The notes beneath the pieces were generated by a model. It saw only the letters and a list, made by a program, of their open reading frames with translations, ran no database searches and had not been told where the DNA came from. A program made the translations under genes and the position numbers. A DNA stretch of 64,000 bases from Psammoneis japonica (lineage: Eukaryota): positions 397,939 to 461,938 of the forward strand of contig QPGO01000038.1 of NCBI GenBank assembly GCA_008632985.1. Reading direction: 5' to 3'. Below, in pieces: positions 12,956-57,928 of this stretch; position 1 is the stretch's first letter; each line of letters starts with the position of its first letter.

Positions 12956-13109
12956 GCTGAAGCGATGGCGTTCTAGCGTAACTTCTAAAAAGGGAATCGA
13001 TTTATAATCACTAGATTCCGTCGGCTTGACTTCTGTTTCATCGCCTTTCAATGTGTTGATCGACAGCATGGTTTCAGCTTGTCGAACAAGTTTAGTGATG
13101 TGGGATACT

Positions 13110-14750
13110 CTCACACCAGTTCGGCTCACATGTCTGGTCATTTTGGCGAGCACACATTGGCAGGTCTTCCCTCCGCGCCATTCTCGTTCCCTGCTCTAGC
13201 TCTGGCAGCTAGTGGCAGGGCCCAACACAATTGTGCAGTGCACCATGTTGGTTTGGCATGAATTGAATGATGATTGTGCATTGATTGCAGGAAGAACTTC
13301 ACTTGGTTGGAAATTTTCTCACTGTCATGAGAACATTCACCGCAGCCATGGTGGTTGAGTGGTGGAAGAGTCTGCTTTAATTTCAGAAACTGTTTTTGCC
13401 AACACACCCATTGTTGCCCATTGCATTTTTTGTTGAACACTTGTGTTGTGTGACATTTGGCTGCATTCCAGAGAGCTGGCCAAAACAGTGGTGCTGACCA
13501 GATTTTAGAATGGGTGCAGTGGCACATTCTCTGGTGGCTCCAATTGACCAATGCAGAACACCAAGTGCAACAGCAACAACAAAGCTCAAATGCACACCGC
13601 CAAAACACTCCACTTGGGCTGCACAACAATTGTGCCACAGAGAGAGCAGGCCAAGCCAGCAACTGAGTTTCAGAGCAGGTGTGAGAAAAAATGCTTTCTC
13701 TGGCAACTGCAGCTAACAAAGGCAAAACATCAAGTGCAACACAGCAAAATGATCATTTTGTTGGCACCCAGCAAGTGAACATTGTCAAAGCACACAAAAA
13801 TCAAGCAGAGATGTTCCAACCCAGGAGTTCACAAAATGTGCAAGTGTGTCTTGTGCTAATCAACACAATGCAAACAAACAATTGGGTGGTCAAAGCTGGA
13901 GAATGAAATTGCAAATGAGAGATTGTGCCAGGAACAAGCACCTCACAACAAATGAGCATTTTGTGAGCACCGCGCAAATTCGTTCAAAGGCAATGATGAC
14001 AAACAGCACTGTCTGCAAAGCAAGAAACAAGGAGGGTTGGCTTTGCAAAATGGTGATGGCAGCCTGTTGCATGGTGCTCAGCTCTGCTGTGTTGCGCTTG
14101 TGTGGCCACTTGTTGGTGTCACAAAGCAAAAGCTGGAACACCCTCAAATGGCCTCTCACGCTTTTTCTCTTGTGACAAAATGACAACCTTTTCCCATGAG
14201 GACAAGCACAAAACAGACATCTTCATTTGTTTTGCTGGAGCAACAAAAATGCTCAGCCATTGAAAGCGAATGAAGTCGCCCTCTGCGTGGGGCGCGGGGC
14301 CAGAGCCAGCTCGCACACACCTGTGGAAAGCTGAAGAGCTCGAGAAATCTTTGAGTGTCTTTGCTCCCCACATCCATGAATCCTCTCTGTTGGGAGGAAC
14401 ACAAAACTGCATTCACATTTGCCATGGTCAAAAAGTGCTGAAAACAATGACTTTTGTGCGGGGAGAGCGACAGAGCTCTGCTCGAAGGCTCCCAGACTGT
14501 GCCCCTCTGGCGGCAAGTGAGTCAGGAGGAGGCAGCATTTCTGAGCATTTTGGGGCACCACCCTGCAAGCTCCCACAGTTTTTTTTTAATTGTTTGGAAA
14601 CTCACAGTGTCCTTTCATTGGCTGCGACTTCAGTGTCAGATTCAGAATGGAGCTGGAGCCGCGCTTCCAGTTGTCGCCACTGCCAGTGGTCGGTCCTGAT
14701 GGGTCGCACGCGTCTGCTCGCTCGTGCGGTCGTTTTCGCTCACCAGGGAA
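13110..14750. other. TpA/CpG-depleted, TpG/CpA-rich degenerate tract A
   Basis: About 7 TA dinucleotides in ~1.6 kb by manual count, all YTAR; few CG in 13200-14250; translations within the tract lack Tyr and are Cys/His rich. Confidence 0.9.
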
Positions 14751-15140
14751 GGCATAAGGGATCGTTTGTCATAAGTCATTTCGCTTTAGACATATGTATG
14801 TCTACATGAAATGCCAGTTTCAGCATAAGTATTTTAAATCATATATCACCTTTTCCGCGAATGAGAATAATGATCATGTCTTGCTGTTTTTCGGAATGAC
14901 TTCAGGACATTTCATTCGTTAAGTAAATACTAAATTACGTCGTGGCGATAGTGCGAATGTGACAAATTAGTCAGTCACAATAAAAAATGATGTTGTGATC
15001 ATTTATCAAACGAGAATTCGAGAGTCTTTCGAGACCACTTCGTCAAATCACTTCTCGTTTCTCTCACAAAAAAACAAAATCATAAAGAGAGAACACTTAC
15101 GAGAAACCCATAACGTTGACTCTTCACTTTTTAGACAACC

Positions 15141-16468
15141 ATGCGTTTCCTTTCCCTTGCTTTCCTGTTGGCCGCTTGCGCCATTGGCGTCAGTGGATCG
15201 GTCGCTGAGGACAACAATGCCTCAGTAAGTGCTACATGAAAAACGGAGTCTTTCTCATATTGTATTATCCCCGTTCTCATTTGCATTCCTTGCTCGCCTA
15301 GCAGGTGCAGCTTGAAGACCTATATGAAGGTGGTCCTGTTGAAGAAGAACAAGATGGCGCTGTCGTCTTGGAAGGAGACGAGCAAGAGCATCGGAATTTA
15401 CGACGTACGCGACCCTCTCAAAGGAATAGAGGTGTCTTGCCCAAAGGTGTCAGAAAAGTGACGAATTCCGATGGCACGAGCACCTATATAATGAGTGTTT
15501 ATGTCTGGTACTGGTTGGGGGCGAAAGACTTGTGCATCAATCCTATCGAGTGGTGCAACTCTAAAGTTATCGAAGAGTTTGAATTCGCAAATTTGTACCA
15601 AGACGAACCTGATGCGAGTGCGGTCTACGCAATGGTGGAAGCTGGGGCCACCTGCTGGGCACAGGCTAAGTCCCTCACAAGGCTGAACGCCATGGTTCTT
15701 GGGCAAGCCGAACTCACCGTCAACCAAATAGGACGTATCGGGCCAATTCCAGAAGTCAATTTCAAATCGAAGTTGCACACGTGTACACTGTCTGTGGCAT
15801 TCGCCCGAAGTGAGTCCGAAGCTGCAGCTTTCTCCCAAGGGACAGCTGGTGCAGCGGTTGAACCGAATGCAATGTGCCAAAACCTCCCGCGTAATCACAG
15901 GTGGATCAGGCATCGTATGTGTACCGAAGGATATGGGGAAGTGGAAGCTACTGGCGAGGCTGATGCTGTCAGCACCTCTTCCGCTTTTTCCCGTTCGCTT
16001 GCAGAGTCCAGAAATTCTCAGCTAGTAAGCGTGATATCCAAAGGCAGGAGTATCAATTTCTTTGAGGCTGTTGTGGTAGGAGGAGCGTCGAGCTTCACTC
16101 AGTCCAGAGCCAAAACGGTTACTTCTGCCATCACAGACGTCGTCGCCGATGCAGATGGTTACACTTGGATTCAAAATTGCATAGAGTGGCTGGTGGATTT
16201 CTGCGGTAGCCACCCGTTCCCTTGGTGCAAGCCAGTTAAAATCGACGAGTATTGTAGAGATGCAGAAGCGGAGGCCTATACCAGGGTCAGCGCCAAGGCC
16301 GACGCTTTTTCCAAGGCTGTTGCGGCATCATTCGGAAACCTCGAAGTTTCAGTTGCATTGAACGCGTATTTGAAACGCAACGAAATTACGGGTGCAATTG
16401 ACATGGGCTTGAACAAGGATTCCGGTTTTTCTGCAGGAGTCGTCACCACCTGTAGAGCTAAGACCTAG
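15141..16468 (+). CDS. Secreted Ala/Ser-rich Cys-containing protein of unknown function; exons 15141-15224 and 15305-16468
   Basis: Exon 1 MRFLSLAFLLAACAIGVSG is a signal peptide; phase-0 intron gtaagt..gcag (80 nt); acidic pro-region ending RNLR. Confidence 0.85.
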
Positions 16469-17359
16469 AAAGAACGATGGAATGCGTTGAGCGAACAGGG
16501 GCGATGAGGTCGTCTTTTCGCTGGGTGTTGAACGATTGTTTGGAAGTGCATGTTTAGTGGAGATCATTAGTAAAAGATGGAGTTACTCAAACGGTCTCAT
16601 CGTGAGTGACACAAGTTGATGGGAGAAGATGGCTTGAATATTGTCTCGCAAATTGATATTACGTAGTTTAGCAAGTATTTGTCTGTGTTCAGTAGTGAAG
16701 CTAAACTTAAAACTCTAGAGTATTGATAACCTTAGGATCTGATTGTGGGCAGTCCCGATCCAACGACCGCAACAACCCCACAGCGACGATGGCGATGGTG
16801 TTTGTTTGCTGTGGGGGAGTGTGTGGAGGCGCCGATGAGATGCGAAGGGCTGCAACATTCTAGAGGTGATTGCTGGGTGACTGTAGGAAGGAATCTCCAT
16901 ACCTGTGATACCGTATTTCATGGCAAGGAGGATCGAATGGAAATAGAGCAGTCCTGGCACTCTATGTTTACTCTCTAGTAGCTGCTCTAGAGTAACTACT
17001 CTCTAGATGGTAGAGGCTCTTATTGGAGAGTAGAACACCTTCACTTTATCAACCGTATACCGGTACGTCGTCCGGAACCACGATTCACAACCGCAGTAGA
17101 GGTGATCACGGGAATAGATACATCGACTGGCATAATGAATATGATCATAATTTCCACGATTGAACAGCTCACACAAATCCCGGATCGGGCAAGATTTGGC
17201 TCCAATGAAGCTGCACCTTCGACAAAAGAAACTGTTCGGCAACTCTTTGCACCAACAAGAGTCCCATCCTTTACAATGCCATGCCTCTTTGACAATCGCT
17301 TTTTCAAGAGATGTGTTGAGAGGGAAGTGCGCGACATGCAACATTCGTTTGCCCCGCCG

Positions 17360-18400
17360 ACGATGACAATCATTGAAACATTGATGCTCCTTGTGTGGTG
17401 CATCATTGTCACATTGACTTCGCTGCCACACTTGGTCCTGCATGAGGAAAATGTGTTTAAAGCAACACAGGATGGCGATGCAACCAGGGTGCGAAGCAAG
17501 CAATCTCGGCATTCAAGCCGTGTCTTGCAGTGGCAGCGGCAAGAAGGGTGGCAAGAAGGGTGGCAGTGGTGGCAAGAAGGCTGGCAGCGCCAGCAACAAG
17601 GAAGGGTGCATCACCGTGCCCTCTGCGACAGCGGCACCGACAACTGGTCCAACGCCAAAATTTGCCCTTGCACCTCCATTGACAGACCCGATTTGAGTGA
17701 CCTCATCGCCGTCACAACGTCCAACGTCTTTGCCGACACCTCCTCCAACACCGCCACCGTCACCTCGTCCTGGTCCTCAGCCAACACCACAGCCATCACC
17801 TCATCCCACTCCTCAGCCAACACCACAGCCATCCCCAACTCTGACCACAAGGCCCGCACCCAACCCTGCATGCCCTCCAATGCCTGGACCAACAACACCT
17901 CCCCCTGCAATGCCGATTGTGCCACTGATGCCTTCGCCATTGAGCATTTGAACCTAACTGCCAACTCCTCAACTGTCGCTTCCTCCACTGACATGTCCTC
18001 ACACTTTAAATCCAACAGAAATGCCAGTGCCCCCACCAGTGCTGCTGCTGCCAACAAAGCAACCGACTGCCCCTCCAACTCCAGCACCGATGCCTCCACC
18101 AACTCCAGCACCGATGCCTCTGCCAACTCCACCTCAAACAATGCAACCAACACCCCCACCAAATCTAGCACCATCACCACCACCCACAAAAGAGAGCCAA
18201 CAGCTCCTCCAACACCACAGCCAACCCCACAACCAATGACGGAACCAACGTCCAGGCCTGCAAGCGCTCCAACCAATGCTCCGACGGGGGTTTCTGACAC
18301 AATCTCCTTCAAAAGCACCATCCAAATCACCTTCTGCAGCACCGAGTGACATGCCGTCATGGTTGCCTTCCTTCTCATGGAAGATTCTCGTTGCATCTCA
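17360..18400 (+). pseudogene. Decayed silaffin/mucin-like cell-wall protein gene (RxL, GKKGGKKG, Pro/Thr repeats)
   Basis: Hydrophobic N-terminus, SRVL, SGSGKKGGKKGGSGGKKAG, then PT repeats across frameshifts with Met/Leu at expected Thr/Pro positions. Confidence 0.7.
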
Positions 18401-19310
18401 TGACAGCTTGGATTTGGGATGCGCGCAACACAAATGGTGATGCCTGGCATGATGATGTTGTTGTTTGATTTTCTCAAGGCAAGTGCAGCTGAGTGGCTGA
18501 AGGAAAAAAGGAAAGGACAAAAATCACACCACACATGATGATGCTCAGCAGTGGAGCAACAGGTGTTGGAGGACAATCTTGGGATTTTTGGCCAGCTTCG
18601 TTGGATTGAGAAGTGAGCCCAAATGGAGCAGCCATGTCAAGCCATGCAGGGGTGAGGAAAGCACTCATGATGCTGGAGCAACAGAGCTGCAATGCTGAAG
18701 GAGGACAAAAGAGCTCATCCTCAAAGTGCTGCTGCTCCACCTGTGGATTGAACTCACAAATGCTGATGCCAGATCAGGCAAGAGGCTTGTTGTAGATTTT
18801 CAGATTCTGTGCACAAAATCACAGAACCTTTCATGCATGGCAAATGGCAGCAACAAAAGGCCAAACACGATGGGGGGTTGCTTCACCCAGACATTCAAAT
18901 CCATCAACTCTGATGTCAGTGACAAAATCAGGGATGCATCATTGAAGATTCAAGGTTGGTGAGTTGCATCACCATTTTTTGAATGATTTCATCATTTGCA
19001 CATTTGATTGAGCCCCACCCTCCTGTGCCATCTGTTGACAGGGGGTGGACAATCCTGAAGACTTGCAGAAATGGAGAAGGAATGGGAGCAGCTGAAGCAA
19101 CAAGCTGGGGCTGCAGAGACAGACACCAACATGGATGGCTTTTTGTTGGTGGGAGATGCACCCAACTCAGGCTCCACAAGTGATTCTCAAGGTTCTAGAA
19201 GAGACACAATGGAACATCAAGGATCATCATTGACTTTTGCTGCTGTCGAGCAACTGCCATCACTGTCACTCAACATTGTGATGGGTTCAAACCAAGATGT
19301 CTCCCATCAT

Positions 19311-19557
19311 TCTGATGCACCAGCTCCAGAAGGAATGAACATGGAGATGCCAGCATCCAACTGCAGTGCACAACTTGAACAGCAGAAACAAATCCTGACA
19401 TTGGCACAGTGGCGCGCACTTCAATGCAGATGCCAAATGCACTTGACCAAGAATCTTGTGGAGTCAAGCCTCAACATGCAAGTGGCTTCTTCAGATGCAT
19501 TGGCTCCAGAAGGAATGCACATGGAGAAAACAGCATCAAACTGTGCAGCGCACAATG
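19311..19557 (+). repeat. Diverged ~65-bp direct repeat pair, 180-bp period
   Basis: tctgatgcaccagctccagaaggaatgaacatggaga (19311) versus tcagatgcattggctccagaaggaatgcacatggaga (19491). Confidence 0.85.
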
Positions 19558-21189
19558 ACCTGGCACCACTCTTGCTGCTGCATTAGAAAGAAACACCAAC
19601 AGTGGCAGTGGCACACATTTCAACAATGATGCCAAATGCACATGGCCAACTGTCTCACACCATTTTGCATGTTTCTTGTGTGGAGTTCAGACTCAAGAAT
19701 CAAACAACTTCTGATGATGGCAATGAGCACCACACAGACACACCCAGTGACAAGATCACAGGAAATCCCAAATTGCCACCTCAAGCTGCTTTGGAATCAA
19801 CAAAGTCGCTGGCATCCAACTGCCATGACATCCAGCTGTAGAAGCCACTGGCAACAACTCTGTGCTGCCATGCATGAGGCAACCATGAGTCAGCAAACTT
19901 GCCAGCAGCACATGCTTTGAGTGTTTTAGAAGGGTTGCAATGCCAAAACAAATTTGCAACAAAATGATGGCAAGCAAGCCTGTCAAAGACCCAGAGAAGG
20001 GGTGTCTTCCAAGTCCAGCAATGCCTGCACATCTGTGCAGAAATTGCCAGAAATGCAGACAGATTGTCTCTGCAGATCCTGCGTGTTCTGTGCACGCTTG
20101 CTGTTCAACAGTGCATTGATTTTACAACAGGCTGCAAATTGGATTTTGTCTTGTTCATGAGCAACATTGTTTGCACCATGAGGTGCTGGGGTTTTGTGTG
20201 CCAAATTGTTGGGTTCTGTGACTGTGTGGTTTCTGTGCAGGTGCCGCACACCATTTTGTTCCACATGTTGGTCTGCCCATCCATCCATCACTTCTGTCAA
20301 TTGTGTTTGTGCAGTGGCTGTGCTGCCCCAAAAGTCCTTTTTCTCATTTGTTGTTGCTGGCCATTGTTGCAGCAGACATTGCCTGCCATGAACATGCAAG
20401 AGCTCTGGCACAGCCACACACATGTGATTGCTGCTGGCTGCCATTGTGCCCATGTCTCCAGAGGTGGGAGAAGTGGACAAGGGGAGCCACAACACCAAGG
20501 CAGTGGCTGCATCTCTTCAACTCCTTTTTGAAGAATTTTCAGCGGACAGATGATGGATGCTTGGCTCCTCATGATGCAGACCCCTCTTCATTTCAGGACC
20601 AACGACCACCAATGCTGTTGAAGCCTGTGTCAAACTTTCTGAACACCTTGCAGCTGCCTGAGCAAGATGCCACAATGGACTTTTAACCTGAAAACATTGG
20701 TGATGCCATGGATGAAAGCAGAAAAAAAAGAACGAATGCCCTGACAAAACATCTGAGGGCAATGATGAACAGAAACAAAACAGAGCCAGACAATGAACCA
20801 TCAACAATGCCAGAGCATGTGGCGCACACTTGCCTTGTCAGTGTGGTTGATTTTGTGTGCTGGCCAAGGCAACACCAAGCCAGGTGAGAAAGTTCCTTGG
20901 CACTTGCTTTGCCAATGCAAGGTCAAAAAACCTGGCATTCTTGGAGAAGCAGCAACATGCAAGGTGACTGTGCTGCAGGAATTGAAGCCTCAAACACTGC
21001 AAACAAAAGCAACACATGAACAACACCCACCAATCTGATTTGCACACTGGCGCCCATTGTCATGACCATTTTGTGTTGCAAGCAAAGCCATGGTTGGGGC
21101 CCAGTCATTCATGGAGTCAGCACTTGAGAGGGTCAAGGACAGAAGTGACACAGGAGAAAGCAAAGCTGTGTGTGCTTTTTGGTCAGTGA

Positions 21190-21430
21190 GTCAGTCTTTG
21201 GACAATTCACTTTGGGCATTGACCGATGGTGAGCTTGCCCAACTGGCCAATGATGAGCTTTCAAAAATTGGGTTGGTGGAGACCAATCAGCTGTGGATGG
21301 AGTGGTGCACACAGGGTTCTGCAGGCTTGTCCTGTCTTTTGTGAAACCACCGAGAGGCCATTGAGATGATCCATGAATGTGTCGCCACATCGTTCACCAG
21401 TCTTCAGACCACAGGATGGGATGGTGGTCA
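21190..21430 (+). pseudogene. Fragment of the C-terminus of a bacterial-type FAD-dependent oxidoreductase (protoporphyrinogen-oxidase-like, PRK07208-type)
   Basis: LWALTDGELAQLANDELSKIGLV..VDGVV..RVLQACPV..IHECV..LQTTGWDG matches the recalled family pattern LW..SDEEL..LA..EL..IGL...VDG.VVRVPKAYPV..IREY...LQTIGRNG. Confidence 0.65.
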
Positions 21431-22005
21431 GGGTGCCTCCTTTCAAGCCTCTGCCTCCATCTCCACAAAGCTGTCCAACCAACAGACAAAACGGCAGACA
21501 CACCCGGGCTTGGTGCCCACAGCAGCTCTCAGTCGTGTGCATGGAGATCTCCTCTGGCTGACGGGGAAGCTGAGCCGTGTCCCAAGCCACGCAGTTGCTT
21601 CAGCTGCAGACCCGGTCCTCCGGCGTGGTATCCGAAATCATGGGCTGTTTCCCAGTGCCGGAAGTGCCCCCCGCCCCGGCTCATCATGAAGACCGGCTAC
21701 ACCCGCTGCCCTTCCTCTGGAAGATGCCGGGCGAAAACCCAGGCAGAGATTTTGCATTGAGCATTTTAGAACTCAAATCGACCGTGGTTCGGCAAAAACA
21801 GTCAGTTGAAAATGTAATGACACATTATAAAGCACCAATTAAAAAGCAATTGCGGCTACAACAAACCGACAACCGCAACATACAACACACAACATTGTGT
21901 GCTTTCTTTGGTTGACAGCACACCGGGGACATTAGTCCGACTAGTTCTTCATAGCACAAACTGAACCATCCCTCGGTCAACCAAGGGCACCATCCGCGCG
22001 TGGTT

Positions 22006-56743: not shown

Positions 56744-57928
56744 TTACACAACACCGTCGGCCCTTAAGTTCCCCTGAATAAATTTCGGTTCCTCCATTGT
56801 GTCAGGGCTTTTTCGTGAAAACGTCACAGTCGGGAGCAATCCCATTTCATCTTGGGCATAGCACAAGTACTGAAGAAAAGTTTTGGACATTTCAAATGGT
56901 TGGTACAGAAATGGGTGCATTTCATCAATAAGAATACAGGGTTGATCTGCTCCGCGAGCTTCGGCAACGCCAAACATGCGTTCTTCGAACCCAAAGGTCA
57001 AAGTGATGGCCTAGAGCCACGAAGCACATTAGTGATTTCCCACAGCATGTTTGATACTTCTTCTTCATAGTAGAGTGCAACATCAGCAACGGTTGTCGGT
57101 TCCGATCGAACAGCTCCTACTAAATTAAAAACGGCATCCAAGACTGTTTGCTCCCACTGCAAGAATCGTTTCGAGGCATAAGAGTGAGGGCCTGAAGAAA
57201 AGAATACAATTGGCGTTGGCATATGCATCACCTATTGTATACTCACCATAGTCGCTTCCATTCCCTGTAGAAACCAGTCTTGCATCGAATAGCGTTTGAT
57301 TCTAGTCGATTTTCAATAGCTCCGCACCATTTCCCGCATGCTGCACACTCTCCGGCCCACTTTTCGCTCCCATCTCCAGCAGTGCCAAGATTCACAGAGG
57401 TATCTTCATCAGAGTACCAGAAACTTTAATACCTGGTATGAGAACTTGCGTCATGGAGTCCCGAGCATACCCAAAGTCTTTTAGGACAGCTTCAATGTTT
57501 CCGCATTCCAATCCGCCAGAAAAGAATACTAAATCTTCTCGGCGAGATTTTAACCCCTCGGGCAGATTTTTGAGATACTCCTTTAGTTGAGTGGGAGGGA
57601 TTGTAATGTAGATTGGGAAAGATCCACTGGCATCAGCTGGAATGTCCTGATCCGGCGTCAGAACCATGTCATCGCCTTGACCCATGCGGACAAGAGCGTC
57701 TGCTACGGTTGTCGGTCCTTCCAAAGGCTTGACAATGACACAAGGTCCATCTTTTGCTTTTTCAATCTCTTGCTTTCCTGACTGTAAGAACGCTTGATAC
57801 TCCATCGTCGCTCTGTTGTCAGACCATGTTGCCTGCAACTGACTAGTGCTGGAGGCGGTCCAACCCGCCGCGGTTGATGCGGGCGAAAATCCAGTAGCCT
57901 CTTGCAACAGAAACGCCGCGGAAANCAT
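56744..57928 (-). CDS. Plastid-targeted ketopantoate-reductase-like protein (At1g16080-like family); intron ~57157-57246, frameshifts, N at 57925
   Basis: ATG-F-SP presequence; PIYI, R.DLVF, GKW, WE..V.....LVGA, TV.DV...Y..EV and F..EER. Confidence 0.6.

Follow-up and report, generated by a model that had tools for sequence, protein, structure and literature searches.

Survival of TpA by flanking base in two TpA-poor tracts of Psammoneis japonica suggests a domain-restricted mutator

In Neurospora and other ascomycetes RIP marks silent DNA with densely packed transitions at a particular dinucleotide; the edges are sharp, some transitions reach into neighbouring sequence, and the direction is from CpA to TpA. 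Among adenosine deaminases, the native target of TadA is U-A-C-G, and the native targets of ADAT2/3 mostly carry a purine after A34. The system that stands closest to the locus described here comes from the rhizarian Bigelowiella natans, where integrated giant-virus and virophage DNA is hypermutated from TpA to TpG or CpA (Mettrop et al., bioRxiv 10.64898/2026.01.13.699255); the preprint reports direct measurement of de novo TpA to TpG/CpA mutation, publishes 231 de novo mutations, names ADAT2/ADAT3 as a candidate and describes long-term clusters in the same genome that are poor in TpA and rich in CpA and TpG. Deaminase activity on DNA has contexts of its own: the TadA variant ABE8e A48E edits within 'YAC' (PMC13109818), and amphioxus BjADAT2 deaminates both A and C, in the contexts 5'-GAA-3' and 5'-TCG-3' (PMC10354150). 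Two marks also invite comparison. Dinoflagellate 5hmU, a TET/JBP-type modification, resembles the present case as a thymine mark that prefers TA (and TC), lies on repeats and silences transposons, and differs from it in being described as an epigenetic mark and not a mutator (PMC11572971), while 6mA, in the species studied, marks active genes and goes with no depletion of ApT (PMC12695648).

The window analysed here – the whole 64-kb stretch of DNA – is gene-dense with long open frames, among them members of eukaryotic families (SacI domain, AIM24, peptidase S28, CLC channel and bestrophin). Two tracts, A and B, depart from this setting (Table 1). DNA outside them has a G+C content of ~47%, a CG o/e of ~1.0, a TA o/e of ~0.58 and 0.0403 TA per base, and serves throughout as a stand-in for the ancestral composition of the tracts, either as a whole or as a non-ORF proxy from which stop-to-stop frames of at least 150 codons have been removed. 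At this outside density the 6128 bases of the two tracts together would carry ~247 TA; they carry 19.

Table 1. Position and composition of the two TpA-poor tracts and the block between them (window coordinates)
Feature	Position	Strand	Remarks
Tract A	13107..14754	.	TA-poor; 7 TA, all YTAR; TA o/e 0.06, CG o/e 0.37, TG/CA o/e 1.74
CpG-poor core of tract A	13186..14267	.	7 CG, o/e 0.12
TA-normal block between tracts	14755..17148	+	TA o/e 0.69, CG o/e 0.95
Secreted orphan protein gene	15141..16468	+	ATG 15141; exon 1 15141-15224; GT..AG intron 15225-15304; exon 2 15305-16468; structure read from sequence
Tract B	17149..21628	.	TA-poor; 12 TA: 8 YTAR, 2 TTAC, 2 GTAG
Tract B left flank	17149..18424	.	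TA o/e 0.08, CG o/e 0.57, weaker CG loss; 12/24/36-base repeats
CpG-poor core of tract B	18425..21350	.	16 CG (o/e 0.10), 7 TA (o/e 0.04), TG/CA o/e 1.94
Tract B right flank	21351..21628	.	0 TA, CG o/e 0.50, partly retained

Relative to outside DNA, TA stands at 0.08 inside the tracts (12-fold down) and CA/TG at 1.54. CG is depleted as well, and neither this loss nor the 1.5-fold rise in TG/CA had figured in the preliminary description. The edges at 13107, 14754 and 17149 are resolved to within ~100-170 bases, with genes on either side at TA o/e ~0.5-0.8. At the right edge of tract A, 168 TA-free bases (14587 to 14755) are followed by 5 TA in 43 bases; at the left edge of tract B, 14 TA in 17004-17148 are followed by 5 in the next 1276 bases. 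The window contains no further tract of the same kind, its largest other TA gap being 171 bases. The TA-poor span exceeds the CpG-poor cores by ~80, 490, 1276 and 280 bases (CG o/e reaches 0.63 in the TA-poor segment 14268-14754 beside the core of tract A), and from these differing footprints it follows that TA erasure and CpG decay are separable. TA erasure appears to be tied to a chromatin domain. CG survival itself varies by flank relative to outside DNA (ACG/CGT 0.22, TCG/CGA 0.28, CCG/CGG 0.38, GCG/CGC 0.52), a gradient that matches, as expected, 5mC decay running faster beside A/T.

A central question is which TA survive. Tract A retains 7 where ~66 would be expected at the outside density, as CTAG (tetramers starting at 13196 and 13209), TTAA (13377, 14586), TTAG (13505) and CTAA (13713, 13856). 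The preliminary description, which had noticed that every survivor in this tract is YTAR, had placed all seven correctly, and 13107-14754 contains no other TA; its approximate tally for tract B (about 8 of 12 YTAR, the rest TAC, none TAT) proves exact, with 8 YTAR, 4 that carry TAC on one strand (GTAG being CTAC on the other) and TAT/ATA at 0. Outside the tracts YTAR makes up 383 of 2307 TA sites (16.6%), and in non-ORF outside DNA 183 of 832 (22%). Against these two backgrounds the 7 out of 7 in tract A have binomial p values of 3.5e-6 and 2.5e-5, and the 15 out of 19 in both tracts 4e-9 and 2e-7, so that counts of NTAN inside and outside the tracts, the check proposed at the outset, give residual contexts that differ from the background. 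Survival by trinucleotide is 0 for TAT, 0.03 for TAC, 0.15 for TAG and 0.17 for TAA. The YTAR survivors comprise 5 TTAA, 4 CTAG and 6 TTAG/CTAA, roughly the proportions seen outside, and a hand count of these 15 gave no effect of wider context (the next base 5' is Y in 11 and the next base 3' is R in 6, 17 of 30 in total).

These counts lend themselves to a simple kinetic treatment, in which TA sites are sorted by the number of strands that have a pyrimidine after the A and each strand is hit independently. For YTAR, with no TAY strand, 15 sites are observed, 41.0 are expected from the ancestral composition and 15.2 are predicted by a two-rate model; for YTAY and RTAR, with one such strand, the corresponding figures are 4, 129.8 and 3.7; for RTAY, with two, they are 0, 75.9 and 0.2. 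With outside DNA as proxy the fit gives kY·t=3.07 and kR·t=0.50, a ratio kY/kR of 6.2 (95% CI 3.4-12.9), and a single rate is rejected (LRT p=4e-10). Substituting the non-ORF proxy lowers the ratio to 4.0 (2.5-6.8; p=3e-8). The survival of a TA thus depends on its two outer neighbours multiplicatively, strand by strand. The flank rule that emerges, a per-strand rate of loss at TAY that is about 4-6 times the rate at TAR, can be stated with high confidence, and rests on 19 survivors in total. The preference had at first been ordered as TAT>TAC>TAR: the step from TAY to TAR is borne out by the rejection of a single rate, and the step from TAT to TAC comes down to 0 versus 4 survivors among sites with one TAY strand (p=0.054).

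Survivors are equally compatible with a rule that concerns the A before Y and one that concerns TA with R upstream, and the products were therefore used to decide. Steps followed by a pyrimidine number 757 TGY and 638 CAY, a TGY share of 0.543. With ancestral frequencies taken from outside DNA and CG decay split evenly, change at the A next to the pyrimidine predicts a share of likewise 0.543, the unbiased case one of 0.509 (p=0.013) and change at the far T one of 0.475 (p=5e-7). The TG/CA products lean to TGY/RCA, as they should if it is the A next to the pyrimidine that changes; RTG shows no enrichment (OR 0.98 and 0.91), and the opposite assignment is rejected under the assumed ancestry. 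The lean becomes weak when raw outside ratios are the reference (Fisher p=0.056 and 0.12); it is missing from the CG-normal flanks (share 0.52), and the gains of single trinucleotides (TGG 1.96, TGC 1.95, TGT 1.47, TGA 1.12) fit no simple model. An attempt, by hand, to balance the losses and gains of single trinucleotides with outside DNA as reference was discarded: it sent more than 100% of TAC to TGC, gave TAA a negative share and varied with the proxy.

Evidence that the tracts acquired their composition by mutation comes from homologous sites. In a comparison with contigs from three runs on one sample (contigs only), a related contig, 85-90% alike, spans 18193-18373. Among the 18 of its 22 differences that were listed, the TG at 18260 (CTAC>CTGC) and the CA at 18340 (GTAC>GCAC) of the window both face TA in the contig, and the reverse case, TA in the window and TG or CA in the contig, occurs 0 times; the same listed differences include two adjacent doublets at which TG faces CA (18237/8 and 18323/4) and at least 4 sites with CG versus TG/CA. 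Old internal duplicates in tract B (19310/19490, 19407/19606) differ by TA/CA, TG/CA and CG/CA, and internal duplicates in both tracts show differences of the same kinds as the related contig. The surviving TA at 13506 and 13714 lie opposite CA or TG in a sister repeat unit. TG and CA are, moreover, finely interspersed (z=-0.74 and +0.08 in a runs test; the outside mean is -1.24), and mixing without long one-strand runs implies that both strands were hit. The base at 19480 is A in the window (TGCAAGT, with CA) and G in the one contig of run X1 that covers it (TGCGAGT, with CG); no other variant of the tracts was seen among the contigs, of whose 458 differences 40 were listed.

We put at about 0.55 the probability that both tracts are old silent DNA reworked by a domain-restricted mutator, which turns TpA into TpG or CpA, strand by strand and in dependence on the flanking base. 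Such a mutator would strike the A:T pair of each strand separately, and faster where T or C follows the A (5'-TAY-3', which is 5'-RTA-3' on the partner strand); YTAR, slow on both strands, therefore persists, and RTAY, fast on both, is lost. The agent would probably work on one strand at a time, through base flipping or in unwound DNA, reading a trinucleotide, and its recruitment would depend on chromatin state, not on copy number. CpG decay, presumably 5mC deamination, would be a second process limited to the narrower cores.

The parallels with Bigelowiella are close. The same dinucleotide is affected, with the same products on both strands, and the effect is confined to discrete regions: here too the change is A:T>G:C at TpA, giving TpG/CpA (read indirectly), in discrete regions with ordinary neighbours. 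There are also differences. Bigelowiella belongs to another supergroup lineage, whereas the present locus lies in an intron-poor eukaryote and its TpA loss is coupled with CpG decay; TA o/e here is 0.04-0.08, a near-complete erasure, against 0.45 in the B. natans NCLDV region (bioRxiv 10.64898/2026.01.13.699255); and the Bigelowiella targets are viral, whereas our tracts gave no viral or transposon domain or homologue. A Pfam search of 17 tract ORFs and of the six-frame translations of each tract, with X carried through the stops, found nothing credible and no transposon or viral domain, its only three matches at E<=0.1 being sub-threshold, of low complexity and within 17102-18576. The tracts contain no Rfam family, a homologue search with the frame 17006-17512 (minus strand) and residues 1-200 of the frame 17102-18349 (plus strand) gave no match, an index search gave no look-alike, and when the tracts were compared with the remainder of the window by tblastn and blastn, internal duplicates alone came up. 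A TpA mutator is already in print, in the 2026 preprint on B. natans; what is added here is a fit with two rates, a test on the products, a test of the Pol-eta idea and a comparison of enzyme contexts. The available text of that preprint holds no flank analysis (bioRxiv 10.64898/2026.01.13.699255), and a full-text literature search found neither a flank rule for a TpA mutator nor a report of such a mutator from a diatom. The flank profile of the Bigelowiella mutations would bear on whether machinery is common to stramenopile and rhizarian.

Comparison with RIP is instructive for a different reason. Both leave dense dinucleotide-specific transitions with sharp edges in silent DNA, yet TpA is made by RIP and destroyed here, where TpA is 12-fold down and CpA is up. 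Furthermore, RIP targets any duplicated sequence, whereas the block between our tracts (14755-17148) is spared although multi-copy. Summed contig depth is 182-535 over this block and 62-112 (single-copy) over the tracts, and at one position of the block as many as 6 contigs differ from the window; this high depth, together with the variant contigs, indicates that the sample holds several related copies of it. Given that the multi-copy block nonetheless keeps its TA, duplication alone does not seem to be a trigger.

As to chemistry, we think it most likely, at roughly even odds, that adenine is deaminated to hypoxanthine and read as G at the next replication. The preliminary description had pointed to TadA/ADAT-type deaminases acting on DNA, a likeness that turns out to be weak: the editing of a TadA variant within 'YAC' speaks for it, and the measured GAA context of ADAT2 on DNA against it. 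TadA-derived deaminases share with the proposed agent A>G change via inosine and action on single-stranded DNA, but they are engineered enzymes, and the loss of TAT in these tracts is no weaker than that of TAC. ADAT2 has in its favour that it is a natural eukaryotic enzyme acting on DNA; its measured preference is, however, GAA and not TAY, and CG loss in the tracts is not T-specific (ACG 0.22 < TCG 0.28). The 35 window ORFs scanned contain no deaminase or TET/JBP domain, and none of them joins an HxE-PCxxC motif to a part that would target chromatin or DNA. Decay of ApT 6mA had been set aside at the outset, reasonably so: AT is retained at 0.82 and AAT at 0.92 of outside, though GAT is at 0.72, and the loss concerns TpA in gene-free tracts where 6mA of the AMT1 type would concern ApT in active genes. 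Over-repair by a T:G glycosylase (VSP-like) was considered and rejected by reasoning, for at CpG it would create CG, yet CG is depleted.

The trinucleotide rule offers a quantitative target against which candidate enzymes can be measured, namely a per-strand TAY:TAR ratio of ~4-6 with TGY/RCA products, and it counts against ADAR-like, ADAT2/3-like (GAA) and Pol-eta-like sources. The survival of TAR versus TAY could also be used as an index, in the manner of RIP indices, to tell this process from plain TA avoidance in other genomes. A further-reaching proposal, which we offer tentatively and hold to be rather doubtful, is that TAY >> TAR is the fingerprint of an undescribed DNA-modifying enzyme – a TAY adenine deaminase or an RTA thymine oxidase – recruited to silent chromatin, acting on one strand at a time and common to this alga and Bigelowiella, an old 'reverse-RIP' genome defence of SAR. 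If that were true, its spread past the CpG-methylated cores would mean that the enzyme tracks chromatin state and neither 5mC nor copy number.

Among the alternatives to adenine deamination the best placed is thymine oxidation, in which a TET/JBP-type dioxygenase would oxidise the T of 5'-RTA-3' in silent chromatin to 5hmU/5fU, and mispairing with G would yield TA>CA (TA>TG on the other strand). Deamination of A in TAY and oxidation of T in RTA change the same base pair and are therefore inseparable by sequence; oxidation, which had not been considered in the preliminary description, fits the sequence data as well as deamination does. We know of no TET/JBP gene and no modified base in this organism, nor do we know 5hmU itself to be strongly mutagenic, and overall we consider this route unlikely. 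The dinoflagellate precedent is nonetheless suggestive in its preference for TA and TC, its presence on repeats and its silencing of transposons (PMC11572971), and 5-formyluracil gives chiefly A:T>G:C (PMC7051996). A weak TC>CC side activity would suit the TC/GA and CC levels of 0.82 and 1.12 relative to outside, although this shift is unpolarised and possibly reflects ancestral composition.

Returning to deamination and oxidation alike, both treat the present TA as survivors. It might be argued instead that they are new, made from CA/TG by C>T change (for example 5mC deamination at CAG/CTG), and that their context reflects this origin. By hand count 12 of the 19 do carry TAG on one strand, and CpG decay in the cores testifies to C>T pressure. 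We regard this as improbable, however: Y__R flanks occur in only 23% of the TG/CA steps in the tracts, so that 15 of 19 would have p=4e-7; five TTAA and two TTAC are impossible products of CAG/CTG; and 5 of the 19 TA lie in the CG-richer flank 17149-18424. A fresh TA would in any case still need the slow-YTAR rule to persist, non-YTAR sites being short-lived whatever their origin.

The preliminary description had also raised Pol-eta-like error-prone repair (WA>WG), set off by T:G mismatches in methylated DNA, and had named a rise in AA>AG as its test. A>G at TA does belong to the Pol-eta WA spectrum, and the tracts do show CpG decay. The test, however, lends no support, with AA at 0.96, AAA at 1.03, AAG at 0.90 and AG at 1.08 of outside; TA loss runs 80-1276 bases past the CpG-poor cores, and a 92% loss of one dinucleotide is far above the noise of repair patches. 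The idea is already near refutation and slightly less probable still than that of newly made TA.

Fainter again is the prospect that no mutation is involved and that the tract DNA avoids TA and CG through source composition or selection. The tracts are single-copy by contig depth, which leaves room for such a reading; against it stand the TA vs TG/CA and TG vs CA differences at homologous sites, in the related contig and in the internal duplicates, in tracts without a gene, Pfam family or Rfam family. To our knowledge a TA o/e of 0.04-0.08 lies outside that of any natural genome. ADARs favour a G following the A, and TAG is among the most resistant contexts here. A route through RNA, in which an ADAR-like enzyme edits double-stranded RNA that is then reverse-transcribed and inserted, has in its favour the preference of ADARs for U before the edited A (discussion in bioRxiv 10.64898/2026.01.13.699255), but it predicts one-strand marking where TG and CA are intermixed without runs, and with the loss including the sharp-edged flank 17149-18424, of which a related copy is present elsewhere in the sample, we find it the hardest of all to credit.

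Several features of the region deserve mention in their own right. The gene in the spared block encodes a secreted orphan protein; its first exon codes for 28 signal-like residues and its second has 387 codons, and the latter (15305-16465) matches no Pfam family and has no homologue among a 5.8-billion-protein collection. A 27-base stretch of a neighbouring gene had no match in an exact search of metagenomes, and a metagenome scan for the CLC channel protein turned up 206 matches to the pattern, 0 of them confirmed. The window has one N, at 57925.

Composition shifts beyond TA and CG are also present. Across both tracts GA/TC stands at 0.82, CC/GG at 1.12 and GC at 1.40 of outside, and the gains of GCC and GCT exceed what conversion of TA and CG can explain; they reflect either a different ancestral make-up or a weak extra T>C at TpC (A>G at GpA). 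The related contig has GA where the window has GG at 18242, 18256 and 18287, among the differences listed.

In place of the 385 bases of 16791-17177 a related contig carries 468 other letters; the replaced span takes in the left edge of TA erasure (17148/17149) and ends ~30 bases past it. Further on, 17535-18260 consists of arrays of 12-, 21-, 24- and 36-base units, with plus-strand frames rich in Ser, Thr, Asn and Pro (ORF 17102-18349, 415 codons), and is possibly a defunct copy of a gene for a surface protein. On the minus strand, the frame 17003-17512 crosses the edge: its unmutated last 48 residues contain 7 Tyr, and its mutated part contains 0 Tyr and is rich in Cys and His.
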